A DNA stretch of 64,000 bases from positions 11,667,144 to 11,731,143 of the forward strand of contig JAHRHZ010000271.1 of assembly GCA_024137785.1 (NCBI GenBank). The letters are read 5' to 3'. A model generated the notes under the pieces. It made no database searches. It worked only from the letters and a program-made list of their open reading frames with translations, and was not told the origin of the DNA. Source of the stretch: Ginglymostoma cirratum. Its lineage: Eukaryota. Shown one piece after another: positions 7,002 through 47,784 of this stretch. Position 1 is the first letter of the stretch. Each line of letters begins with the position of its first letter. The translations under genes and the position numbers were made by a program.

Positions 7002-7222
7002 GATAACACAGTGTGGAGCTGGAGGAACACAGCAGGCCAGGCAGCATCAGAGGAGCAGGAAAGCTGATGTTTTGGATTGGGACCCTTCTTCAGAAAAACT
7101 GAAGAAGGCTCCTGACCCGAAACGTCAACATTCCTGCTGCTCTGATGTTGCCTGGCCTGCTGTGTTCCTCCAGCTCCACACTTTGTGACCTCTAACTCCA
7201 ACATCAGCAGTTCTTACTATTT
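7002..7222. mobile_element. Palindromic PLE-derived mini-element (family A)
   Basis: About 90-bp inverted arms around CTTCAG-AAAAA-CTGAAG; exact 14-bp TSD CCATCTGGTTCACT (6988-7001 and 7223-7236). Confidence 0.9.
7099..7126 (+). ncRNA. Minimal hammerhead ribozyme motif
   Basis: CUGAAGA-A-GGCUC-CU-GACCC-GAAA-C-GUC: conserved core boxes, helix II with one mismatch, palindromic ACGU helix III, GUC cleavage triplet. Confidence 0.7.
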
Positions 7223-8480: not shown

Positions 8481-8701
8481 CACGGGAACCATAATGTATA
8501 TTAAAGTGGCAAGCAGCTGGGAGTTCAGGGACATTCCAACAGACAGGGTGAATGTGTGCCCCAAAGCTATTGAACTCAGCCCTCAAAATATTCAACAATT
8601 CTGCCTCCAGTGTTCTCTGAAGAAAAGAATTTCTGGGCCTGGTGACCTTTTGAGAGAAAAAGATTCTCACCTCCATCTTAAATAGGAGACTCCTTGTTTT
8701 T

Positions 8702-9270
8702 AAGAGATAGTGGGAACTGCTGATGCTGGAGAATCTGAGATAACAAGGTGTAGAGCTNNNNNNNNNNNNNNNNNNNNNNNNNNNNNNNNNNNNNNNNNNN
8801 NNNNNNNNNNNNNNNNNNNNNNNNNNNNNNNNNNNNNNNNNNNNNNNNNNNNNNNNNNNNNNNNNNNNNNNNNNNNNNNNNNNNNNNNNNNNNNNNNNNN
8901 NNNNNNNNNNNNNNNNNNNNNNNNNNNNNNNNNNNNNNNNNNNNNNNNNNNNNNNNNNNNNNNNNNNNNNNNNNNNNNNNNNNNNNNNNNNNNNNNNNNN
9001 NNNNNNNNNNNNNNNNNNNNNNNNNNNNNNNNNNNNNNNNNNNNNNNNNNNNNNNNNNNNNNNNNNNNNNNNNNNNNNNNNNNNNNNNNNNNNNNNNNNN
9101 NNNNNNNNNNNNNNNNNNNNNNNNNNNNNNNNNNNNNNNNNNNNNNNNNNNNNNNNNAGCATCAGAGGAGCAGGAAAGCTGACGTTTCAGGCCTAGACCC
9201 GAAATGTCAGCTTTCCTGCTCCTCTGATGCTGCTTGGCCTGCTGTGTTCATCTAGCTCTACACCTTGTTA
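8702..9270. mobile_element. Palindromic mini-element (family A) containing the assembly gap
   Basis: Arms mirrored around TTTCAGGCCTAGACCCGAAA; 11-bp TSD TCCTTGTTTTT (8691-8701 and 9271-9281); inserted in a minus-strand CR1 fragment. Confidence 0.85.
8758..9157. other. Assembly gap (400 N)
   Basis: Run of N. Confidence 1.
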
Positions 9271-10699
9271 TCCTTGTTTTTGAACTGTGTTCTGATTCTA
9301 GTCCAACTTCTAGAAATAGTTCTCTTCTCTCCCACAGGGGTTGTATCCTTTCAGTATTTACCCTGTGAATTCCCCATTAGATTTTATATGCTCCATGAAG
9401 ATCACCCCTCAGTCTTCTAATCTCCAATGGATAAAAGCACAAACTGTTAAAACTATATATTCATTACCTTTAAGTGTGCTGAAAATATATATTTCTAAAG
9501 AAAGGTCAACAAAGGAACTTAATCGTTTGTATTTAATAGAAACACTTCCATTACTTATAAATGTTAGGTAGAGAGCATAAAGAGCTGATTAATTGAAACT
9601 CTGCCACAACTTCTAATATAATTAACGTTTGTGCAAATTTACATTTTGCATATATTACAGAAGCTCCGCATACAATTTCCTAAATCAGATTTTAATATCC
9701 GTCAATAACTTTTAAATTTATTCTGTGCCATTAACATTTTTGCTTCAGAGGTGGGAACAATGACTGGTGAGTAGGATATGAGAATATCACATCCTATTTC
9801 TGTTTAATTGCAAATGTAATGTTAACATAGCCAGAATTGACAGCCACCTGAGGTTATTTTATTAGGAACTGAAGCTGCCAATTCCAACCCTTAATACTGT
9901 AATTCAATGCTAACAAAAGCTGGAAAAGTTTCCTGTATTTCAAGTCACAGATTAACTATCTAGTATGTAAGAGGTAAACTAAATGTAAGTGAAATGATTT
10001 CAGTCTTGACATGTGATCTTTTTTGACGACTTGGAAACCTATCACATTGGCAGTAGAACTGCTGAAGGCTTCTTGTTGTACGTGCATTAGGAACAGGAGT
10101 TTGACCTTGCTTATGAAGGAATGCTAAGCAAGTTGAAATATTTAGTGGGTGTTCTAGGACTTAATACACTGCACTGACCTTAAGGCTGATATCCTGCACC
10201 AGCATCTCCTAAAGGATTTCTAGATATACTTCAGATTCCAGAAATGTTTGGGGGCAGAATGGTAGGTTCAGTGAGTCACCATGCTCAGGAATTAACCTGA
10301 CACATCCATCACTCAGGGTTTCAGTAGCCTCACAGCCACACAGTAGACTTTTCTCAAGCAGATCCCCAGCTCTGCTGAAATATAGATGATAGAACTATAT
10401 CTCTGACAGACTTCAAGGACGTGCAGCTAGAAAGAACAGTAATAGACAAGTTAAACCAAGAGGTGGAAAATGTAAAACAGTAAGCTGGAGAAAGTTGTGG
10501 TTCATTTGCAATTTCAAACCCCTCCAAACTGGGTTGATGTAAGCTGGAGAATTGGCATGTTAATTTCCAATTTGGAACTTTATTGTTTTCCCGGAGTCAA
10601 TGTTGTGTTTAACAACTCGAGGCCATGAACCACTTTTTTTCCTGAATATCTGTTTCTTGTTTTTATGTCAGAGCTAAACATTTTTCTGTTGTTATATCC

Positions 10700-11140: not shown

Positions 11141-12429
11141 TCACTTCACGAAGACAGTCTGAAAATGTCAATACAGTTGTGGAAGCAAGAGAGGTAGTGG
11201 AAAAATAGTTGTCGTCAGTGTAGAGGGATCTTCATCCATTCAGTATTGATGCAGGGAGCACATAAGTAAAAGAGAAGGGAAGCCAAGAAACGGTAGGGGC
11301 TGTGGCTTAGATTGGGTGTGGGGGTATGATGGGGCAGAGACGTGGTTGGCGATAGATTAGGGGTGGAGTAGGTTGGAGACAGAGGTGGTGTGGGGATAAA
11401 TAGGAGATGACTGTTGTTAGGTTGTGGGAAGGCATTGACAACTTTGAAAATGGAGAATAGGATGTTTTGTTACACTTTATACAAATCTCCAAACCCAATT
11501 TGTCCTGAGTATTTTTGGCAAGGCAGAGCCCCAAAGTGGCCAAATGGGGTCTTAACATAAAACCTGGTTTACCCTGCATTTATTACAAGATGCTGTCATA
11601 ACAAAGGAATTAAGGGGCACAATATGAATGGTTACTCATGGCATCATTAAAGAGACAATGATCACTTCAATTGCATATTTACACTCATTAAGAAGACTGT
11701 GCAGCACTTAGGGGAGAGTATTTGACTTTAGCACATGCTTCTAAAAGTGAACAGCTGTTTGGGAGTAAACCAATTGCTAATGATGATTTTGAGTGCAACC
11801 TAATGATCATTGACCATTTCCTGCTCATTTGCTCCTGGAGCTTTGAAGAGAACTTGGAGATAGGATTATCCTGAAGGCTGTAGTTGAGTGTAAGTTATCT
11901 GACTCCGTGATAACAGAGTCAGTGGTTCAGAAATGTTCTGCTGCGGGGAAAATAGTTTAATCGTTGCTTGCATGTTGAACCTGTAGCTTTCAGTTTTAGC
12001 ATCACCAGGAACATTCAGATTATGGTAATCAATAATTAGGACTAAAGTTGTATGCTAAATCCTGACTTCCAAGCAATTGTGTCTTATAAGCACAGCATAT
12101 TTTTAGTACCTGTGTTCTTTTGCTAAATAATCCCCAAATTTATCAGTTGCTAAACGTAGCCTGAAACAACCTCCAAATACAACAGAGGTAAATTTTAATA
12201 TCCTCAGTAAACAGTGCATTGATCAAAGTCCACATTAACCAGTGCCATTCAGTTTAATGCAGGCAGTGGACAAATTTGTCCTGCCTATTCATATCAGTGA
12301 TTTCCACATCAGCAGGAAGCCCATGCAGTTACTTCATAGCAACTTTGGCCTGCAGGTTTTAAGGGAAGGTGTGATATGTTTGTTTGAGATACGAGGACAT
12401 TGTAAAGAGTTTTGATGGACAATCAACAA

Positions 12430-12538
12430 TCGGGCCTAGGCCCGAAACGTCAAGCTTTCCTGCTCGGCCTGCTGTGTTCATCCAGCCCCACGCCTTGTTA
12501 TCTCGGATTCTCCAGCATCTGCAGTACCTTTTATCTCT
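12430..12538 (+). mobile_element. Family A single arm starting at HHR helix II
   Basis: Begins with the perfect 16-bp palindrome TCGGGCCTAGGCCCGA, then AACGTC, arm and tail. Confidence 0.85.
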
Positions 12539-13636: not shown

Positions 13637-13804
13637 GAGATAGTAGGAACTGCCGATGCTGGAGAATCTGAGATAAAACGTTGTGGAGCTGGATGAACAC
13701 AGCAGGCCAAGGAGCATCAGAGGAGCAGGAAAACTGACATTTCGGGTCTGGACCTGAAAGGTCGGCTTTCCAGCTGTGTTCCTCCAGCTCTGTGCCTTGT
13801 TATC
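13637..13804. mobile_element. Palindromic mini-element (family A), right arm partly deleted
   Basis: Tail and left arm, centre TTTCGGGTCTGGACCTGAAA, shortened right arm ending CCTTGTTATC. Confidence 0.85.
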
Positions 13805-14704
13805 ACAAAGGAAGTGAAAATTTATTTCTCGAAGAAGAATAAATGCTTTTGCTGAAACTAAAGATTTTATAAATGCCCCAAACAAATGAGTTTTTCTTTT
13901 GGTTCAATCAGGAGGAGGCAAAGAACAAAATTCCATCAATTATCTCAACAGGCATCTCATAAAATTGGTTGCAAGGTCAGAGTATGGCTTGTTTCATTTT
14001 TTTTAATTTAAAGAATAACTGACGTCACCTATTTATTTTGTTGTTTATCATATTTCACAAATGACAGGTAATTTGTAAAATGCAATTGGCCTGCAAACTT
14101 GTGTACTTTCTTCAGAGCATTAAAAAAAAATAAAATTGTCTCTTTGTTGCTTTTCCGTTTAGGACACAGTTCCTGAGCAATTTAAGATGTGAAGTGACAA
14201 TTCAAATGTTTAAGATACTCTCGGGCGGCCAAGATGTGGACTTGAGTTTAAATGCTGCTTTAATCCATTGTTGAGTACAATGATTAAAAAAATTTGAAAG
14301 TTGCATCCAAATGGTCACTCAGAAGCTTGTTAAAACAGCTGATTACTTTTCAAAATGCCCATTGGAGTTCATTAAAAGTCTAAACACTTTGAAAACCATT
14401 GCTGGTCCTCTCCCTAACAAAATCTACCCGAGATGAAACAAACTGCTGGTATGAATTAGAATGAAATTTAAAGCTATAATCAATTTCATATTCCAGAAAA
14501 TGCTGGAGCTGTGAGGAAGACTTCTGAAAAACTCCATTGTAATACTTTGAGGACATATTGACAAGACTTCAGCCACACTTTAGCAATATTTACTGCACAA
14601 ATTCTTCTAGGTCTTCACTCTACAAGAGCAAGTAACGTTCTGATCCATCCTGCCGGATGCTTCACTGGACTCAACAGGAGAAAAGGAGTGTTAAATCATG
14701 GGTA

Positions 14705-17521: not shown

Positions 17522-19504
17522 ATTGAGCTGTATTTCAATGGCTGAATAATTTGGGAAATATGAATTGTAACAGCTAAGCGTAAAAAGCATATAAAAATAT
17601 TTGTTGAGACAAACCTAGAGATGTTATTGTGAAATATTTAATATATCTTTGAGAAATTAGCTTTGAAATATTGTGGAGATGACTAAATATTTTAAAAAGG
17701 TCAACGAAAATCCTTTCTTAAATTATTTTATCTTGGAAACCATGATGTGTTGTGATAATTGCTGGTTTTGTTTGCTTGAGTTCACTTCAAGAAAAGCACT
17801 TGAGTATTTTATGACTGGGGTTTATGGTTGTACCATTTGAGCAATGTTTGCAGGATTGGAATTTCTGTTGGAATTCGTTCGGGAAAGCCTGTTAAGAATA
17901 AGCTGTACTGTTGATTTTCTCCTGTTTTCAAAACATCTTTGTGATGAATCGAGTGTGATCAAAAAAAAAATCCCAGTTTGGTGTTTTCTGTGTAAGCTGT
18001 GTCTGCCAAGGTTCCAGAGACAACCGTGTACAAATAGTGATGTAGCCACGCGTGTCAGCACACTAGTACTTCATAAAACTCTGTGCCTTTTACCTTCAAA
18101 AGTAATCAACCTTAACCAGAAAGTTATTTTTGCCCTTTTTAAAGCGCATGTCTTTAAAAGAAATCTTTTTTAGGTGCGCATTTGTGTGTGTGCTGCATTA
18201 TTTAGAAGAGAATGCATTCATATTTTTATATTACAAACTAGTAACCAATTCTGCAACTTGACTACATGGTTTTGTTTTATAATGAATTGCAACTTTGTGT
18301 TTGCTGAAGAAACTTAGTTGATGGATTTTTTTAATAAGATAACTTATAAGAATTTAATACACAAATTAAAGCAACAAAATATTTTTCTTTATATATTTTA
18401 AATTATTAATCACATTAGTAGCACTGACAATTAGTTACCAAAAACATGCTATGGAATGTGATTAATATAACAAATGAAGGTAGGAGGATTAAATAATTTC
18501 ATTATTTATTAAGTGAGAATGGAGAGAAAAGGTTTCTACTTCCTAATCAATGAGTCCAATACACTTCCTATTTTGATTAGATTCTTTGATAATACTTTGT
18601 CTTCTCCATATGTCCACAGTCCAAAATATAAACTTTTTGAAAATGGCGACTGAGCCAAGCATGGAAATTGCACAACCGAAGATAATTTTTGTACATAATG
18701 GGGTAAATTAAAGTTTTAGTATTCTGATTACAGAACTTCATTTATTTCAAATACTTAACACTGAGTGGTATATAACCAGACAGAATAATTTGCACAAAAA
18801 TATTTCTGATTTGCAGTCCTGTTATGTAACACTTTAGCAAGGGGCATTTGCATCATATGTTTGTCCCATACGAAATGTATCAGCAATCATTATTAGTGTT
18901 ATATCAGCCTTGGTTGCTACTAAGTAAAATGACATCATTGCACAGCTGTACCTCTATAATCCTGCTGATCTGGTGCAAAACTGGAATGGAGCTGCTTGAC
19001 CTGCTGTGTTCATCCAGCCCCATGCTTGTTATCACGGTATAGGGAGTGGTGTTTTACAAAGACAGACCAGCACTTCAACTGTTGATGATGAGAACGTATT
19101 GTGTATACCCATAATCAAATAAACAGGTAAAAGGTGCAATACACTCAGTTGTGAAACATATCATGGCACCAAGTCTGAATCTAGTTTTGAATCATGGTTT
19201 ATTATGAACTACTGAAATATGCCATTCTTTCTCTTTGCAATGATCACATATTAGTGTGAACATGGTAGATATGTCTAGCACACTTGTTTTGTCAAGGGCA
19301 ATCCACTTCTTAAATTATCCTCTTTCAGAAAGATTAATCTACATGCTGAGAAGTAAAATCCATTCAGACCTGAAGCAGATTTTTATGTTCTATGGGCCTT
19401 TTTATACTATAGTCTCACTGGAGGCATAACGTTGATTGGAATTGACAAGAATAATGTGATTTATAAGGAGATAATTGAAATCTCATAGAGGTAAAGAAAT
19501 CATT

Positions 19505-28306: not shown

Positions 28307-29526
28307 TAACTTTAAACTGTGATTTTTTTTTTCTCAATGTCGGTAGCTGTTTCTAAACTGAACAATGATGATGAGTAATTTAAATTTTGATGCTAGACTC
28401 TGGGGGCTGAATGAAAGAGTTGGTGCAGGACCCAATAACTGGAGAGTGGTCTAATGTTGTGCCTTTGTTGAAGAAAGGTTGTAAGGAGAAACCAGGGAAC
28501 TATTGACCTGCGAGTCTGAATTCAATCGTGGGTAAATTGTTGGAGGCGATTACAAAAGTTAGATTTATGAACACACGGGCAAAAATTAATTAAGGATAAT
28601 CAGCATGGTTTTGTGCAAGGAAAATCATGTCTCCAAACTTAACTGTGTTTTTGAGGAAGTTACCAAAAAGATTGATGATGGTAGAGCAGTAGATGTTATT
28701 TATTTGGATTTTAGTGAAGCGTTTGACAAGGTTCCGCATGACCGATTAACCGGTAAAGCTAGGTCACATGGGATTCAGGGTGAACTTGCCAATTGGAAAC
28801 ATAATTGGCTTAACGGCAGGAGACAGAGAGTAATGGTGGAGGCAACAAACGTGGAGCTGGTCAAACACAGCAGGTCAGACTGCATCTGAGGAGATGGGAA
28901 GTCAACGTTTCTGGCCGAAATGCTTTGTCAGGGCTGGGGACGGGGTGAGGAGCCCAGAAATAAAAAGAGGGAGGAATGTGGAGCTGGATAAAAGTAGGTG
29001 GGATGGTGATAGGTGGATGCAGCTAGGAGGTTATAGCAATTGGTCAGTGGGAAGGTTAGGGTGGATAGGTGAGTAGGAAGATGTAGAGATTAGGACAGTT
29101 TAGGGAGGTGGGACATGGGATAAGACTGGGGGTGGAGGGATTTTGAAGTTGGTAAGTCAATATTCAAGCCCTTGGGCTGTAAGATCCCAAGGTGAAATAT
29201 CAGGTGTTTTTCCTTTAGTTTACGTTTGGCCCCACTCTGACAGTGGAGAGACCAAGGACGGACATGTTGCCAGGAGAGTGGGAGGGGGAATTAAACGAGA
29301 TGGCAACCAGAAGGTCGGGTTGGTTGGTACATGTACAATGCAGATGCTTTGTGAACTGGACTTGAGTCTGCGTTTGGTCTCCCTGATGTAGGGAGCAAGG
29401 AATGCAATAAATCAGATTGGATGAAGTGCAGGTGAATCTCTGCTGGATCTGGAAAGATTGTTTGGGGCCTTGGATGGAGGTGAGATGGGAGGTGTAGGGG
29501 CAAGTATTGCACCTTTTGCAGTTGCA

Positions 29527-29574
29527 GTGGAGGGTACCGGGGTGGAGGGTACCGGGTGGAGGGTACCGGGTGGA
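29527..29574. repeat. Three tandem copies of a 14-15 bp unit GTGGAGGGTACCGG(G)
   Basis: Direct reading. Confidence 0.9.
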
Positions 29575-29710
29575 TGAACAGCCCCTGAGGAAAGCAGACA
29601 GGGGCGGGGAAGGAAGTATCATTTTGGTGGTGGGGTCAGACAGGAGGTGACGGAATTGTCGGAGAATGATGCAATGGACTTGGAGGTTGGTGGGTTGGTA
29701 CGTGAGGACT

Positions 29711-30460
29711 AGAACATAAGAACTAGGAGCAGGAGTAGGCCATCTGACCCCTCGAGCCTGCCCCGCCATTTATTAAGATCATGGCTGATCTTTCTGAGAC
29801 TCGCCTCCACTTAGCCGTTCACTCACCATAACCCTTAATTCCTTTACTGTTCAAAAATTTATCTAGCCTTGCCTTAAAAACATTGTGAGGTAGCTTCAAC
29901 CGCTTCACTGGGCAGGGAATTCCACAGATTCACAACCCTTTGGGTGAAGAAGTTCTTCCTGACCTCAGTCCTGCATCTGCTTCCCTTTATTTTGAGGCGA
30001 TGCCCTCGAGTCCTAGTTTCACCTACTAGCAGAAACAACCTCCCTGCCTCCACTTTATCTGTTCCCTTCATAATCTTATATGCTTCTATAAGATCCCCCC
30101 CTCATTCTTCTGAATTCCATTGAGTATAATCCCAGTCTACTCAGTCTCTCCTCATAATCCAACCCTCTCAACTCTGGAATCAACCGAATGAATCTCCTCT
30201 GCACCCCCTCCAGTGCTAGTATATCTCTTCTCAAGTAAGGAGACCAAAACTGCACACGGTACTCCAGGTGTGGCCTCACCAGGACCCTATGCAGCTGCAG
30301 CATTGCCTTTTAAACTCCATCCCTTGAACAATGGCAGATAAAATTCCATTTGCCTTTTTAATCACCTGCTGTACCTGTAATCCCACCTTCAGCGATTCAT
30401 GCACAAGGACACCCAAGTCCCTTTGCACAGTAGCATGCTGCAATTTTTTACCATTTAAAA
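29711..30460 (-). mobile_element. Relatively young CR1 3' fragment nested in the PLE
   Basis: Near-intact LVRPHLEYRVQFWSPYLRRDILALEGVQRRF and KNFFTQRVVNLWNSLP; GTTCTTATGTTCT tail. Confidence 0.95.
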
Positions 30461-33400
30461 CACAGTGACTAATGACACTCTATCCTTATTGTTGTTGTGG
30501 GGAGGGAGTTTGAGGGCAAAAATGCGGGAAATGGGGGAGATGCGATTGACTGCATCTTTAATTATAGAGGAGCGGAAACTATGGTCTCTAAAGTAGGAGA
30601 ATATCTGGGATGCCCTGGAGTCAAATGCCTCATCCTGGGAGCAGATGCTGCAGAGGCGGAGGACTTGAGGTTATGGGATTGCATTTTTGCAGGAGGGTGG
30701 GTGAGAGGAGGTGTAGTCGAGGTAGTTGTGTGAGTCAATGGGTTTGAAATGGATGTCAGTAGTGAGTCAGTTTCCAGAGACGGGGCCAGAGAGGTCCAGG
30801 AAAGGAAAGGAGGTGTCAGAAATTGTCTGGGTGAGTTTGAGGGCAGGGTGGAAGGTGTTAGAAAAGTTAATGAACTGTTGGAGCTCCTTGCGGGAGCATG
30901 AAGTAGTGCTGATATAGTCATCAATATAACGGAGAAAGAGGTGAGGATGGTGCCGGTGTAGTTGTGGATGAGGTTCTGTTCCATGAATCCTACAAAGAGG
31001 CAGGCATAGCTCGGGCCCATACGGAAGCCCATAGCCAACCCTTTAGTTTGTCAGAAGTCAGAGGAATCAAAGGAAAAATTGTTGACGACCAGTTCTGCCA
31101 AGTGGATGAGGGACGGGAACTAAGTGGATCTATAGGAGGGGAAGAAGTGGAAGGATTCCTTGTGGGGAATGCAGGTACATAGGAACTGAACATTCGCAGT
31201 GAAGATGAGGTGTTGGGGGCAGGGGAATTGAACGTTTTGGAAAAGGTAGAGGGCATGGGTTGTGTCACAAAAGTTGGTGGGGAGTTCCTGGACTAAAGGG
31301 GAAAGAACGGAGTCAAGGTAGGGGAGATAAACTCAGTGGGGCAGCAGCAGGCAGAGATCATGGGTCGACCGGGGCTGTCAGGTTTATAGATCTTGGGTAG
31401 GAGAGAGAAACAGGGATGCGGGGTTGGTGAACTATCAGGTTGGAGGCTGTAGGCAAGATATCTCCTGAGGTGATGAGGTTGTTGATGGTCTGGGAGATGG
31501 TGGCTTGGTGATCAGAGGTGGGGTCAAGATTGAGGGGATGGTAGGAAGAGGCATCAGAGAGTTGGCGTCTGGCATCAGCAATTGTAGAGGTCAGTTCGCC
31601 ATACTACCATCAGAGAGGGACACCCTGAGCTGGAAGTTTACTTTTCAGACTGGGAGGCCTGTGACTAGTTGTGTACCACAGGGATCGTTTCTGGGTCCTC
31701 TTTTGTTTGTCATTTATATAAATGATTTGTGTGATAATATAGAAGGCTTGTTTAGCAAGTTTGCGGACAATACCAAGGTTGGTGGCATTGTAGACAGTGG
31801 AGAAGGTTTTCAAAGATTACAAAGGGATGTTGGTCAAATGATTCAATGGGCTGAAAAATGACAGCTGGAGTTCAATCTGGATAAATGCGACATATTGCAT
31901 TTTGGTACAACAAACAAGGGTAGGGATTACACAATTAATGGTCGGGCCTTTTGTAGTGTTGTAGAACAGAGGGGTCTTGGGATGCAGGTACATAATTCTT
32001 TGAAGTTTGTGTCACAAGTAGACAGGGTAGTTGAAAAGGGGCTTGGCACACTTGCCTTTGTCGCTCAGTTCTTTGAGTACAGGTTTTGTTGAGGTTGTAC
32101 AGGACATTGGTGAGGTCTCTTCTGGAATACTGTATCCAGTTCTGGTCACCCAGTTATAGGTAGGATATTATCAAGCTGAGCAGGGTTCAGAAGAGATTTA
32201 CCAGGATGTTGCCAGGTGGGGAAAGTTTGAATTATAAAGAAAGGCTGGGACCTTTTTTTTTAACTGGAGTGTAGGAGGTTGAGAGGTGACCTGATAGAAG
32301 TTTGTAAAATAATGAGTGATATTAATAGAGTTAATGGTGGTTGTCTTTTCCCTAGGATAGGTGATTACAAGACCAGGGGGCACATTTTTAAGGTGAGAGG
32401 AGAGAGATTTAAAAAAGACATAAAAGGCAATTTTTTGACACGGGGTGGTTCGCGTATGGAATGAACTTTCCGAAGAAATGGTGGATGTGGGTACAATTAC
32501 AAAGTTTAAAAGACATTTGGATAAGTACATGAATAGGAAAGTTTTGGAGGAATATGGGTCAGGTGCAGGCAGGTGGGACTAGTTTTGTTTGGAATTATAT
32601 TTGGCATGGACTAGTTGGCCCGAAGGGTCTGCTTCCATGCTGTATGAGTCCATGACTCTGACTCTATGACCTGAATCATTTTGAGCCTTGTTCATATTTA
32701 TTTGCAAACTGAAAGTATGTGACTGAGCTGAGTCTACCAGTGGCTTAGACCTTCAGCACTGAGATTCACTTGAAAGTCAGAATGGGCAGGGCTTCAGTGG
32801 TAATTAGGCACATTATCTCTTTCAATGTGAACATAGAGATGGAGGTGTCAGGTATGGGTTGCACTCTATTATTTGGAAATAACCATTTATCATTAACAAA
32901 TACAAGCAGTTGCATTTTTCGTTAGCAATGATTTAGTGGGACTGTGTTGATAAATGAGGGAAAAATGCTCAGTCTATTGCAGCGAAATAAGAATGGTCAG
33001 AACATAATAATATAGTGGATTTCTGTCATTGATGTTGTTCATATTTTCCAGTCATTTGTCACTGTTTTACACAAAATTTCAAATGTCAGAATATCCCAAA
33101 GGATACACAATATTTCTCAACTCTTATTATAGACACTGGTACAGGGAGGACGTTATAATAATCCTAGCTTAGAAAGCTGCCTCCAGCTATGCACCTTCAC
33201 TTATTATGTTATAACAATAAATTGTAAAAAAATGTTACTAAAATACTCCAGATCCATGAAATGGGAGTTGGAATGTTGGTCCCTTATTTCTCTGATGCAA
33301 TCCAGGTGGAATTAGATTGCAATGTCAATGGATTGTCTCCCTGCAAACAGTGGGATAAATCAGCAAAAATGTCTAACTAGTCAGACACAGTCAGCCTGAT

Positions 33401-33917: not shown

Positions 33918-34115
33918 AAATTACTGCAGATGCTGGAATCTGTACTGAAAACAAGAAATGCTGGAAATCACATTGGGTTGGGCAGCATCCATGGAGAGAG
34001 AGCAAGCTAATGTTTTGAATCTAGACAATTCTTCATCAGAGTTGAAAATATTAGCTTGCTCTCTCCACGGATGCTGACCAACCCCCTGTGATTTCCAGCA
34101 TTTTTTGCTTTCATC
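33918..34115. mobile_element. Palindromic mini-element (family C)
   Basis: Inverted arms (GCAGCATCCATGGAGAGAGAGCAAGCTAAT / ATTAGCTTGCTCTCTCCACGGATGCTG); exact 11-bp TSD AATTGAGGAAT (33907-33917 and 34116-34126); degenerate CUGAUGA motif on the minus strand. Confidence 0.85.
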
Positions 34116-34142: not shown

Positions 34143-34243
34143 ACAAAAACAGAAGTTGCTGGCAAAGCTCAGCAAGTCTGGCAGCATTCGTGGAGGAAAA
34201 AAATCAGAGTTAACGTTTCGGGTCCGGTGACCCTTCCTCAGAA
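34143..34243 (-). mobile_element. Family B single arm
   Basis: TSD TAGTTAAACC(T/A)ATA at 34129-34142 and 34250-34263. Confidence 0.85.
34212..34241 (-). ncRNA. Minimal hammerhead ribozyme motif with intact core
   Basis: CUGAGGA-A-GGGUC-ACCG-GACCC-GAAA-C-GUU with a perfect 5-bp helix II; helix I is only about 2 bp in this copy. Confidence 0.75.
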
Positions 34244-42659: not shown

Positions 42660-43860
42660 AGACCAGCTTGTGTTTCAAATTCCACATTCCTAGCTGTCCC
42701 TGATAACCTCAGAACTTATTAGAAAGGGTCACTCAAACCTAAACGTTAACTCTGATTTGTCTCCACAGATGCTCCTGCTGAACTTTCCCAGCAATATATG
42801 TTTTTGTTTCTGATTTAGAGCATCTGCAGTTTTTTCCATTTTTACTTGGTGACCCTTAATTTAAACCAGTGCCTCCTAGTTCTGGAGTCACACCCAAGGA
42901 ATTATCCTTTCCAGTTCCACCATGTTAATGCTATTCAGGATCTTTTATACTGCAATCAACTCTTCCCTTTTCTAAACTCCAGTGCAATCAAACCCAGCCT
43001 TTCCAACCTAGCCTCACAGGCAACCCATTCATTCTAGCTATCAATCTAGTAAACTTCCTCTGAACCGTTTCCAATACATTTACATCCTTTCTTCCATAAG
43101 GAGATCCAAACTGCGCACAGCATTTGAGATGTGGCCTCACCAATGATCTGTATTTAAAAGCATAACATCATTATTTTTATATTCCATTTATTTTGTAATG
43201 AAAGATAGTATCCCATTGGCCTTTTTGATGATGCGGTTTTCCTGCATACTGACATTTGAGTGACTTATGCACCAGAGCCTAGATCTTTCTATGTCTCATA
43301 ATTCCACAGTCATTCTTCATTAAAATAATACTCTGATTTTTCTTTGTTCTGTGTCAAAGTGAACAACTTCATGTTTTTCTGCAAAATTTCATCCACCAGA
43401 TGTGTGACCATTCACTCAACCTATCTATATCAGTCTGCAAACATCTTATGTCCTCTTCACATTATACTTTCCTACCTGTCTTTGAGTCATCTAAAAAATA
43501 GCTACCATGCTATTACTTCCCTGAACTAAATCATTGATATAAATTGTGAAAATTTGAGGTCCCAGCACAGACTCCTGCAGATCTCCATTGATCACATCCT
43601 GCCTTTCAGACAAACATATTATTCACACATGTTCTGTTTTCTGCCAGCCAATCTTCCATCCATTTTAATATGAGACACCTTACACAATGAGCTTTTGCTG
43701 CCCACAATAACCATTGGTGTGGCAGTTTATCAAATGCCTTCTGGAAATCCAAAGACCATATATCTGTGGGCTACCTTTAATCTACTGCATGTTGTACTCC
43801 TTCAAAGAGGTTTAATAGATTGATCAAATATTATTTTCCTTTCATGAGACCATGCAGACA
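42660..43860 (-). mobile_element. Old CR1 fragment
   Basis: Diverged CR1 ORF2 sequence on the minus strand (e.g. TCAAATGCCTTCTGGAAATCCAA encodes LDFQKAFD). Confidence 0.8.
42708..42846 (+). mobile_element. Family B arm with degenerate HHR and tail
   Basis: AAGGGTCACTCAAACCTAAACGTTAACTCTG..CCACAGATGCT..CATCTGCAG. Confidence 0.75.
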
Positions 43861-43882
43861 AACCCCAACTGCCTATCTTTGA

Positions 43883-44086
43883 TAAGAGATAATGGGTACT
43901 GCAGATGCTGGAGAATCTGAGATAACAAGGTGTGGGGCTGGATGAACACAGCAGGCCAAGCAGCATCATAGGAGCAGGAAAGCTTGACGTTTTTTAGGGT
44001 CTAGGCCCTAAAAAACGTCAAGCTTTCCTGCTCCTATGATGCAGCTTGGCCTGCTGTGTTCATCCAGCCCCACACCTTGTTATCTC
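43883..44086. mobile_element. Near-perfect palindromic mini-element (family A)
   Basis: 84-bp arms 43919-44002 and 44003-44086 with two mispairs; one-sided tail 43886-43918; TSD CTGCCTAT(C/T)TTTGA at 43869-43882 and 44086-44099. Confidence 0.95.
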
Positions 44087-45279
44087 TGCCTATTTTTGAG
44101 ACTTCTTATCCTGTCCTAAGGCAACCTAATCTTAAACTAGCTGCTGCAAAAGCTTTTTGGTATTTGCTATGACTTAATATTTGTTTAGTCAGAGATTTGT
44201 TCTCACTGAAGCAAGATGACTATTGTGTGAGAGGTCATTTTCAACTTGTACAGGTATTGTTTAACCAGTGTTTCCAGGTCATTGCAGACTTTTCAACGTG
44301 TTGAACTAGCAAGCTGGTAAAACTTGCTGAACAGCTTTAGAAAAGTTGACAATTCAAAAAAGGGACTGTGAATTTTAAAGTTCTTATAGGTATTTACACC
44401 AAATTTGCAGTGAGGCAGAGGCTTGTTATAACTCAACCTATGGATATGTCCAACTTCCATCTCTCTCTGTCAGTGTTCTATCATTGACACAATCCCTACT
44501 GTCTCCCAATTTTCCCTCCTACATGACTCAGCCACTGAATTCTAGCTACAATGCCAAGGCTCCAAACTATGCTGCGTCAAACTGCCCAATCACAACCTCT
44601 ATCCCCAAAAATCATATTCAAGAAAGATGTCTGCTGGGCTGTGGTCTCCTTCAAAGCATTCTCTGTCCAATTGCAAGTCAAATCTATCAATCGACATCGA
44701 TGACCATGCCTAATATATATTTTTCCTGGCTTGGAAATCTTGTCACAGAAAATATCAGGGTCTGTTACCCAAAGGATGATGAGAGCTTCTGAGGAAACCT
44801 GTTAGACCTTGTAAATTGAGCAATTAGATTTTTTAAAGATAGTGTAATGGAAAGAGTTAACTATTTTTTGAGGAAATAGCTGACCTGTGCAAAGCATTTT
44901 AAGCAGAACATTTTCTCAAGGCCACAAACTTAGTTTGATTTTCCATGACACAACAAATAAATCTGAAGAGGGTGATTTTATCAGACATCACATGATGCAA
45001 TTCACATCATATCACAAATTGCAGTACGTGAGACAAATTAATGCTGGGTCCTAACATGCACGATTTTCAATCTGTCAGAACAATACGTAAAATATTTAAT
45101 CCTAAAATCTTGGGTATAAATTTCACTGAATGATAAATAGCATTTTTCTTAAAACTGCCCTTTCTCCCTACTGGATTTTTTTTTCTCTCATTCTTTACAT
45201 GAGTGACCATGCTCAGCTTCTCTATTAGGTACAGCTTTTTTAAAAAAAAATGTACAATATTTCTGCTTGTAATTCAGCT

Positions 45280-47335
45280 GTAAGAATCCTACGCCGCACT
45301 AACTGACTGTGTCTATAGTATGTGTGCTTTTTCTACAAAAAAGAATGTATCTGCAAATACAAATTCACCCCACACGTAGGTGCGTGTGTGCGTGTGTGCG
45401 TGTGCGTGCATGTGCGTGTGGTCACCCCTAGTGCAACATGAACGCAGGATCCCAGTTGAGGCCATACAAATGGGTACCGAACTTGCCTAACAACCTCTGC
45501 TTGGCAACTCTGCATTGTTATGTATTCCAAAGTTCGCCTTGGAAGTCTACCCAAAGATCCGAGGCCAACTGTCCTTGACCACTGAAGTGTCCCCCTACTG
45601 GGAGGGAACATCCCTGTTTGGCAATTGTTGAGTGGTGTCTGTTCATCCGTTGTCAGACCATCCCGTGCCTCGGGGCATCCTTGCCTACAGCATATGAGAT
45701 AGACAACACTGGCTGAGTCACATGAGTCTCTGCCTTTGTATGTGTGGGTGGTGTTTCCACATGCAATGGTAATAGCAGATCCACGACATGGATATGTCTT
45801 GCAGAGGTTGCCATGACAGGGTTGTGTAGTGTTTTGGTTACTGTTGTCCTGAAGGCTGGGTAGTTTGCTGCAAACAAAGGTGTGTTTCAGTTTTGGTGGT
45901 TGTTTGAAGGTGAGAAGTTGAGGTGTGGGGAAGATCTTGGCGAGGTGTTCATCGTCATCGATAATGTGTCGAAGCCTGAGAAGAACATGATGTAGTTTCT
46001 CCACTCGCAGGAAGTACAGGACAATGAAGGGTACCCTATCAGACGTATCCCGTGTCTGTCTTCTGAGGAGGTCATTACGGTTTTTCACTGTGGCACGTTG
46101 GAACTGGCGATCGATGAGTTGAGCATCGTATCCTGTTCCTATGAGGGCATCCTTCAACACCTTGAGGTGTCCATCACGTTCTTCCTCATCTGAGCAGATC
46201 CTGTGTATGTTTAGGGCTTGCCTTCAGGGGATGGCTTCTTTAATATGTTTCAGGTGGAAGCTAGAGAAATGCAGCGTCGTGAGGTTATCTGTGGGCTTGC
46301 AGTAGAGTGAGGTACTGAGGTGTCCATCCCCAATGGAGATACATGTGTCCAAGAATGACACTGATTCTAAAGAGTAGTCCATGGTAAACCTGACGGTGGG
46401 ATGAAACTTGTTGATATTGTTGTATGGTTGTTTCAGTGATTCCTCGCCATGAGTCCAAAAGAAGAAAATGTCATCTATGTAACTGGTGTGTAGCATTGGT
46501 CGGAGGTTCTGTGCAGCAAAGAAGTCTTGTTTGAACCTGTGTATGAAAATGTTGGCATATTGGGGAACAAATCTGGTTCCCATGGCTGTTCGGTGTGTCT
46601 GGCTGAAGAACTGGTTGTCGAAGGTGAAGACATTGTGGGCAAGGATGAAGCGGTGGAGTTGTTGGATGGCGTTTGAAAATTGGCAGTTGTTGGTATTGAG
46701 TACTGAGGCTGTTGCAGTGATGCTGTCATTGTAGGAGGTGCTGGTGTGGAGTGCCAAAACATCGTGATGAAGAATATTCCTGGCTTGACTAGTCCGTGAG
46801 TGCTGAGTTTCTATAAGAAATCTGTAGTGTCGCGACAGAAGCTGGAGATTCCTTGTACAATGGGTTTCAAGATGCCCTCAACATAGTCAGAGAGTTTCTC
46901 ACACATGTCCAAGTGTGTTGGCTTTGTGTATCTTTAGAAGGCAGTAGAAGTCCTCTATGTGGGAATTGTGTGGGATGAGAGTTCATGTGGTACTCTGAAG
47001 GACTGGATCTTGGCCAGTCTGTTCATTTGACGGGTGTGTAATTTGGTCGGATTGGCAAGTAGTTGTCTGTAGTGTTCCTCGTTGTTCAGTTGTTGGTACA
47101 TTTCCTTGCAGTAGTCTGTTCTATTCTGTATGATGATGGCCCCTCCTTTGTCTGCTGGCTTAATGGAAATGTTGTGATTGGTCTTGAGAGCATGGATGGT
47201 GTTGTGTTCTGCCCTACCTTGTGAGTGCAGATGATGAATCTGTGTTAACATGTTTTCTGATGGCTTGAGCAAACCTGTCAAGCCCCAGGCAATGGCCCTC
47301 CGGAGGGGTCCAATTTGACTGTGTCTTTGCCCCCT
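45280..47335 (-). mobile_element. PLE body (RT plus GIY-YIG), frameshifted
   Basis: IKPADKGGAIII; TAMGTRFVPQYANIF..SYIDDIFFFWTHG..FHPTVRFT..SFLDT..LYCKPTD; PCHGNLCKT..CDSASVVYLICC. Confidence 0.95.
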
Positions 47336-47387
47336 CACGTGCACGTGCACGTGCACGTGCGCGTGCGCGCACACACACACACACGTG
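47336..47387. repeat. (CACGTG)4 plus GC/CA alternating purine-pyrimidine tract
   Basis: 52 bp of uninterrupted alternation. Confidence 0.95.
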
Positions 47388-47784
47388 AATTTGTATTTGC
47401 AGATACATTCTATTTGGTTCAAAAAGCACACAATTGATAGACAGTCAGTCGATGTGGCATTTTATAAATTCTTACTTTAGAAATAAAACCAGTCTGACTC
47501 CAAACCAAAACACAAACAGATTCTAAACAAGGCTCACACCTAACATGCATTGTGTGACCTAAAATGTCACCACTTCTTTAGAATGATAAAACCTTTAGCT
47601 CTCTCAGGACAGTGGCTTGAAAGAAATTCGGGATTTACACATACATATTAATCAATTAAAACCTTGTAACTGATTAATGATTTAACAACATCTTAGGTTT
47701 GTTTAATACATCCTCATCAGTGGTGTGACCCTTTGAAATTTTACTTATAAGCTCTGTGCCTGATACTACCTCTCTCACTAACAC

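Follow-up and report, generated by a model that had tools for sequence, protein, structure and literature searches.

A 204-bp insertion lies at positions 43883 to 44086 of the window (the window being the whole 64,000-nucleotide stretch of Ginglymostoma cirratum DNA that was analyzed). It consists of a 36-bp tail and two head-to-head arms that turn in stem II of a hammerhead motif, and it contains no ORF (Table 1). The two arms, 43919 to 44002 and 44003 to 44086, are 84 nucleotides each, abut without a spacer, and are complementary at 82 of 84 positions (98%). Only two pairs are mismatched, one in the stem (43962/44043) and one in the loop (44000/44005). The hairpin fold has a z of -25, and 0 of 200 shuffles fold equally well. 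The sequence GACGTTTTTTAGGG at 43986 (+) has its complement at 44006, and CATCATAGGAG at 43964 has its mirror at 44031; window-wide, each occurs only at its two places. An 84-bp hairpin with variants mirrored in both arms, as claimed in the preliminary description of this locus, is therefore present at exact positions, and both of the variants highlighted there are symmetric. The span of 43883 to 44099 that was given for it is correct at its start and too long at its end, where 44087 to 44099 is the right target-site duplication (TSD) and the element stops at 44086.

Table 1. Parts of the insertion and its flanking target-site duplications, in window positions
Feature	Position	Strand	Basis or remark
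Left TSD, 13 bp, ancestral version	43870..43882	+	Direct repeat of 44087-44099 with 1 mismatch; retained in the relative's contig
Penelope "tail," 36 bp, left side only	43883..43918	-	No mirror at right; in the relative, family contigs stop in piles at either end of the tail
Left (tail-bearing) pLTR arm, native part	43919..43992	-	Aligned with window copies
Left-arm alleles: GGGG at 43934-37, extra T before GACG, T at 43969	within 43919..43992	-	First two common to the 12.4-kb copy
Three extra T's (six-T run versus three)	43993..43995		Family has TTT-CGGG here, as read from the relative's loose contig ends behind 43984 and 43992 and from window copies; slippage or untemplated addition at the junction would account for them
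Exact 13-nt native sense-strand hammerhead stem II with 5' bulged A	43996..44008	+	Reverse complement of the family continuation in the relative's run X7
Mirrored scar: T and six A's, replacing the native GAAA-box G and three A's	44009..44015	+	Direct reading; the relative's contigs over 44013 are three bases shorter
Right (tailless) pLTR arm; mirrored T allele at 44036, unmirrored change at 44043	44003..44086	+	82/84 complementary to the left arm
Right TSD, one post-insertion change at 44094	44087..44099	+	Comparison with the left copy and the empty site

Symmetry of this kind could be produced by assembly or polishing, if the real arms were unequal and reads in flipped orientation mirrored them. 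Assembly does struggle with such hairpins: a 400-N gap (8758 to 9157) stands where homology implies ~22 missing bases. At the present locus, however, the two halves of the scar and the asymmetric loop all lie within 26 bp, which is spanned by single reads and k-mers. Moreover, two asymmetric sites survive in the assembled sequence, and the longest identical runs between the arms are 43 and 37 bp. An artifact of this sort is very improbable.

Other classes of hairpin were also considered. Rfam gives only sub-threshold miRNA matches (MIR2118 at 45.9 bits against a gathering threshold of 85, and MIR528 at 27 against 62), and we rejected a miRNA precursor because these scores are below the gathering thresholds and are generic hairpin matches. 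We also rejected a MITE or other nonautonomous DNA transposon because the left terminus is an unmatched 36-bp tail and the symmetry is central rather than terminal.

The insertion and its family

The layout is that published for PLE (passages of PMC3846280 and PMC8557442): the pLTR is inverted, 5' truncated, and head to head with a palindrome at the junction, a tail in the 30- to 40-bp range (36 bp) is present at one end only, and the target site is duplicated. The duplication is set at 13 bp by the empty site described below, and a shared C makes a duplication of 14 bp with an element of 203 bp equally possible.

Contigs from four runs (X2, X5, X7, and X9) of a relative, which is a species other than that of the window, were aligned to positions 43450 to 44550. 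The site is empty in three of the four runs (X2, X5, and X7, representing three samples from three studies). The empty-site contig reaches 43877 and resumes at 44095, and the 217 bases that it skips are the 204-bp element plus one 13-bp target copy. Among the contigs listed for run X9, none spans the site, which is evidence neither way. The flanks of the relative differ from the window at 21 of 428 and 23 of 456 positions (44 of 884 in total, or ~5%). Between the two TSD copies there is 1 change in 26 bases, and the arms and TSD together have 2 changes in 188 bases. The insertion is younger than the split from the relative and has a true TSD, and since the site is empty in a relative with only ~5% flank divergence, the insertion is young. 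Based on its anatomy, its TSD, and the empty site, we conclude that it is a young, 5'-truncated copy of a shark Penelope/Poseidon-like retroelement in the usual head-to-head layout.

In the relative, the ends of family contigs accumulate at 43885 and at 43918 to 43921. These are both ends of the tail, in agreement with the two RT start sites described in passages of PMC11167929. Four of the five head-to-head junctions of the hairpin family in the window (at 43.9, 9.2, 12.4, and 13.7 kb) turn in stem II, while that at 7.1 kb does not. The family appears to be linked to a Penelope RT/GIY-YIG ORF only indirectly, through a pLTR that is 74% identical over 61 bases at 28851 and ends a decayed RT/GIY-YIG-like body at 28851 to 31615 (-). 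This body has RT-like and GIY-YIG-like pieces and is interrupted by a LINE-like insert at ~29720 to 30470. The protein-atlas neighbors of one piece carry HTH_animal/RVT_1, which we treat as a lead only. Pfam finds no family related to PLE in any of 9 pieces and no PLE-specific family in 60 ORFs of the window, and a PDB search with one piece was empty.

Spurious annotated proteins of Rhincodon typus and Stegostoma tigrinum read through the hairpin pLTR family. These nine (P0001 to P0009) are public shark gene models that contain translated pLTR pieces, and they include a named Stegostoma zinc-finger HIT isoform; the pLTR pieces in such models would be either annotation artifacts or exonization. 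Pattern scans found 0 family copies in viral contigs, 0 in prokaryote genomes (twice), and 0 in metagenome contigs, for which another scan gave 3 loci that match over 22 to 25 bases only and are due to chance. Word-indexed protein searches with the translation of the arm gave no match, and RNA folds of three short pieces are no better than those of shuffles.

Two whole hammerhead motifs were detected in the window by a motif scan, at 7099 (in the hairpin's own family) and at 34241. The family therefore has the CUGANGA core, stem II, and GAAA box within one motif, which this copy does not: the GAAA box is replaced in both arms of the 43883 to 44086 insertion, and the CTGANGA core is found on neither strand of 43700 to 44300. 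It had been proposed that the mirrored change destroyed the GAAA box in both arms at once. The box is indeed gone, but no ribozyme was lost with it, since the CUGANGA half is absent from the insertion. On its sequence, the copy is truncated inside the motif and was already a half-ribozyme, with no function implied. A functional double ribozyme was rejected.

Several other elements in the window were noted. The sister hairpin at 8701 to 9272 has a tail, an 11-bp TSD, and the native loop orientation, and it contains the 400-N gap mentioned above. The copy at 12423 to 12538 belongs to the hairpin's subfamily. It has a tail and a fully palindromic stem II, has lost 14 bp internally, and its inverted arm is just ~8 bp long; a TSD was looked for there and was not found. 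The older hairpin at 7002 to 7222 turns upstream of the core, and both of its arms retain the CUGANGA half around an A5 spacer; it has a 14- to 17-bp TSD and is inserted into another repeat. Another older hairpin, at 13637 to 13807, has an internally deleted right arm and turns in stem II. The hairpin at 33919 to 34113 belongs to another hammerhead-bearing family and has a 14-bp TSD, with the whole motif nearby at 34241 (-). A second, apparently different Penelope-like remnant lies 1.2 kb from the insertion at 45333 to 47461 (-), with open pieces of 296, 217, and 168 amino acids whose atlas neighbors, recognized at a low score, have HTH_animal and GIY-YIG. Within this remnant, at 47320 to 47390, are palindromic units of the CACGTG type that adjoin a CA repeat.

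Alleles shared with other copies

Both highlighted variants had been described as private to this copy, and they differ in how they bear comparison with other copies. Two further alleles are symmetric across the arms, GGGG (43934 to 43937) and an additional T ahead of GACG (GGGGCTGG and GCTTGACG). Both are present in the 12.4-kb copy (12423 to 12538), and GGGG is also present in the fragment at 18991 to 19033. This comparison identifies GGGG and the extra T as subfamily alleles that derive from the source element. Mirrored subfamily alleles follow from both arms having one source, which requires only a common template and no arm-to-arm copying.

At the CA(G/T)AGG site, T is present in 0 of the 5 other window arms that cover the site, none of which is in this copy's subfamily; the subfamily mates at 12423 to 12538 and 18991 to 19033 lack the site. 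Tyr stands at the CATAGG codon, as it does in this copy, in 2 of the 9 spurious shark proteins, a biased sample in that it was a Tyr-bearing query that first retrieved both of them (P0001 was recovered again with a Ser-bearing query) and a protein-level comparison in which Tyr does not prove the same codon. The Tyr-bearing P0002 is the only one of the 9 proteins with the QP motif of this subfamily. On these two proteins, CATAGG seems to be present again in whale-shark copies. P0001 has an older-type loop, and its Tyr may be recurrent rather than inherited. Together, these comparisons suggest that CATAGG is probably inherited from the source subfamily and is not private.

The TTTTTTAGGG center gives a different result. 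The six-T form is present in 0 of the 6 other window arms that cover the end of stem II, of which only 2 carry the exact GACGTTTCGGG and the other 4 carry decayed versions. A normal-length box is read in frame by 8 of the 9 spurious proteins, and P0002 is unreadable there. Among the relative's contigs listed over position 44013, the three extra bases are lacking in 3 of 3 from run X2, 4 of 4 from run X5, and 5 of 5 from run X9, as well as in the 4 contigs listed from run X7 (182/504 depth); as contigs drop rare variants and these derive from another species, they are a weak test of privacy. A second copy of the TTTTTTAGGG scar was not found among the window arms, the 9 shark proteins, or the relative's listed contigs. 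That the TTTTTTAGGG center is private to this copy is therefore plausible in the data compared, and this is the only part of the earlier claim of privacy that stands.

The same data bear on an explanation that needs no copying between arms, in which TTTTTTAGGG is an ordinary variant carried by a source whose ribozyme is dead. Two cDNAs started at two nicks, one having the tail and the other lacking it, would each have read the variant and annealed in stem II, which is self-complementary. Passages of PMC11167929 describe two RT start sites, priming on both strands, and a ribozyme that is dispensable in vitro, all of which would suit this explanation, and the tailless end of our copy coincides with a common family end in the relative. 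However, the 12.4-kb subfamily mate keeps a normal GAAA, 8 of 9 spurious proteins are in frame through a box of normal length, and the relative's listed contigs are without the three extra bases, which is weak evidence for the reasons just given. In addition, the T of the scar exactly complements the bulged A, which argues for templating by a hairpin. We consider TTTTTTAGGG as a plain master allele to be quite improbable.

Origin of the mirrored center

Read from the tail side, the family has GACGTTT, then C, stem II, and T, after which comes the CUGANGA core in complement (run X7, 21 contigs behind 43992, 0.97 agreement). The left arm of our copy is native to 43992, and three extra T's follow. 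The stretch at 43996 to 44008 then has the loop orientation of the tailless arm, which is opposite to the native orientation from the tail side, and its first base is the A that PMC4209133 (in passages) places, conserved and unpaired, between positions 9 and 10.1 of the hammerhead. Across stem II, the G of GAAA has given way to a T that complements this native bulged A, and the A-run on the right mirrors the T-run on the left. For comparison, the hairpin at 9158 to 9272 has the native loop orientation from the tail side, the 13.7-kb hairpin retains that seen in an older subfamily, and the copy at 12.4 kb is symmetric. We infer that the TTTTTTAGGG center is a junction scar, in which three extra T's were joined to the 13-nt native sense-strand stem II and the product was then copied across.

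Since the scar on the right side is the exact complement of that on the left, the left arm is needed as its template, and it is likely that one fold-back (arm-to-arm) copying step made the mirrored center. The preliminary description had proposed that one arm was copied from the other, either by snap-back synthesis during insertion or by later conversion. Arm-to-arm copying fits the center scar, with its complemented bulged A and mirrored run, but is not called for by CATAGG, for which a common template suffices. Snap-back during insertion agrees with the published reading of such junctions (passages of PMC3846280), but not in its plain form from a normal template, because the loop is reversed. 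A plain snap-back of tail-primed cDNA from normal RNA would give the opposite loop orientation and no scar. It is possible that a symmetric junction such as that at 12.4 kb acquired two point changes, at 43996 and 44000, which is less economical. Addition of TTAGGG by telomerase at the center was also rejected: AGGG already belongs to stem II on its sense side, and what comes after it is the loop, with no further repeats. TTAGGG occurs 28 times in the window, on both strands.

We propose that the center was mirrored by fold-back at insertion or by way of a scarred parent copy, with a rough probability of 0.65; the order of junction events is reconstructed from this one locus. Both arms would have been made at insertion from one source, so that every allele of that source would be common to them, including GGGG and the extra T and probably also CATAGG. 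The tail-side cDNA would stop in the T-run, slip, and gain three T's. Its scarred end would be joined to a tailless cDNA that had run through stem II and one base past it, to the bulged A. Such a junction of two cDNAs would leave a scar at the left only, and the strand crossing the loop would then fold back at GGG/CCC and copy the scarred arm, placing the scar in both arms.

The fold-back may have occurred as the second strand crossed the loop during this very insertion, which we hold tentatively and at somewhat less than even odds. Only slightly less probable is that it came one generation later, when the transcript of a parent hairpin scarred on one side was retrotransposed from the parent's tail. 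The cDNA from the tail would cross the flipped loop and snap back in the ordinary way, or two cDNAs would read the one scarred arm. Copying of both arms from an already scarred parent is a third option beyond the two raised earlier, and all three would yield an identical sequence. The layout of the copy (one-sided tail, head-to-head arms, junction palindrome, and TSD) matches that of published PLE, and we count this in favor of fold-back at insertion or by way of a scarred parent. Counted against the scarred parent is that the second scarred copy it predicts was not found in the window or in the relative's listed contigs. A further proposal, which we regard as rather unlikely, is that the scarred stub was remobilized from its tail, that the new cDNA snapped back in stem II to give the flipped loop and the symmetric scar, and that shark hairpin stubs are in part a self-propagating nonautonomous family. 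If this were true, the stubs would not be just dead-on-arrival truncations, and loop orientation and scar symmetry across the many genomic copies would separate self-priming from two-nick priming in Penelope elements.

Alternatively, the scar could have remained one-sided at insertion and been mirrored later, by a replication template switch that copied the inner 33 to 37 bp across. The switch could have been an intrastrand fold-back or an interstrand switch that also flipped the loop. Homogenization of arms together with loop inversion by template switching is known (passages of PMC8794818 and PMC8604942), and a near-perfect hairpin with a 4- to 6-nt loop is an ideal substrate for it. Both highlighted variants lie within the inner 37-bp identical run, just outside of which (arm position 44) is an unmirrored substitution. 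The arms have 1 mismatch in 81 pairs, while 4 are expected at maximal age. However, this deficit is not significant: with equal rates assumed in both lineages, the probability of at most one mismatch is 0.09 if the insertion is as old as it can be and 0.40 if it is half as old, and the single change in the 26 TSD bases gives no sign of a much older age. The arms of older hairpins in the window diverge freely (13 mismatches in 93 columns at 7.0 kb and 2 in 34 at 9.2 kb). An insertion as young as this one has had little time for a later event, and no conversion is needed for CATAGG if it is a subfamily allele. The similarity of the arms appears compatible with no later homogenization, as the arms are no more alike than age allows. 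We therefore consider mirroring by a later switch to be unlikely and favor mirroring by fold-back at insertion or through a scarred parent.

Meaning and known systems

The arrangement of this element is already known and has been interpreted in print as self-priming, and only its center looks peculiar to this copy. Taken alone, the locus is of little weight, being a dead stub whose class is known and whose arrangement has been published; it serves as a worked example. The passages that bear on the inverted arm of Penelope elements in papers of 2013, 2021, and 2024 (PMC3846280, PMC8557442, and PMC11167929, respectively) do not settle how it is made. The junction carries three readable marks, which are the arm that bears the tail, the direction of the stem II loop, and whether the scar is one-sided or mirrored. 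With ~5 family hairpins per 64 kb, a shark genome is a large sample in which these marks could be counted without bench work, and as countable marks they bear on the origin of the inverted arm. We found no paper on shark Penelope hairpins or their arm-to-arm variants in a search of mostly nonsubscription literature.

The copying step that we propose has a counterpart in short-range template switches (passages of PMC8794818 and PMC8604942), in which a single event can perfect a stem, copy a bulge across, and invert the loop. Those events occur in replication and were detected by comparing parent and child, whereas at the shark locus the orthologous site is empty and offers no earlier state for comparison. 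Among nonautonomous PLE derivatives, the retrozymes of a preprint (10.64898/2026.07.22.740005, in passages) are tandem units rather than head-to-head stubs.

The minimal PLE hammerheads of Cervera and De la Pena (2014, PMC4209133), as described in passages of that paper, have core boxes around stem II and an unpaired base at 9/10.1, as does the shark family, and pairs of hammerhead motifs are reported there 100 to 700 bp apart on opposite strands. The shark copy itself differs from them in being without the CUGANGA half and GAAA, and it is not a ribozyme motif. Poseidon PAc of Anolis carolinensis (Frangieh et al. 2024, PMC11167929) likewise has a hammerhead in its pLTR, a likeness to the shark family that is drawn from its description. 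Passages of that paper define the tail as the segment from one RT start site to a second, report nicking and extension on both strands of the target, and show that ribozyme cleavage is unnecessary for insertion in vitro; they give no account of how the inverted arm arises, and they call the later steps unvalidated.

The closest likeness in arrangement is to the EN+ Penelope elements Pen2a, Pen2, and Pen3a of Adineta vaga (Arkhipova et al. 2013, PMC3846280). The passages of that paper on these elements contain no analysis of arm-to-arm variants. They describe the same head-to-head pLTRs with a palindrome at the junction, an optional tail, and a TSD, and the palindromes are read as self-priming; the same inverted-pLTR layout is given for PLE in passages of PMC8557442. 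The A. vaga elements have an optional one-arm tail of ~31 bp and a TSD of 8 to 10 bp, compared with 36 bp and 13 bp in the shark copy. The shark copy differs from them in that it has no ORF, has arms of 84 bp, turns in hammerhead stem II, and carries a scar in both arms.
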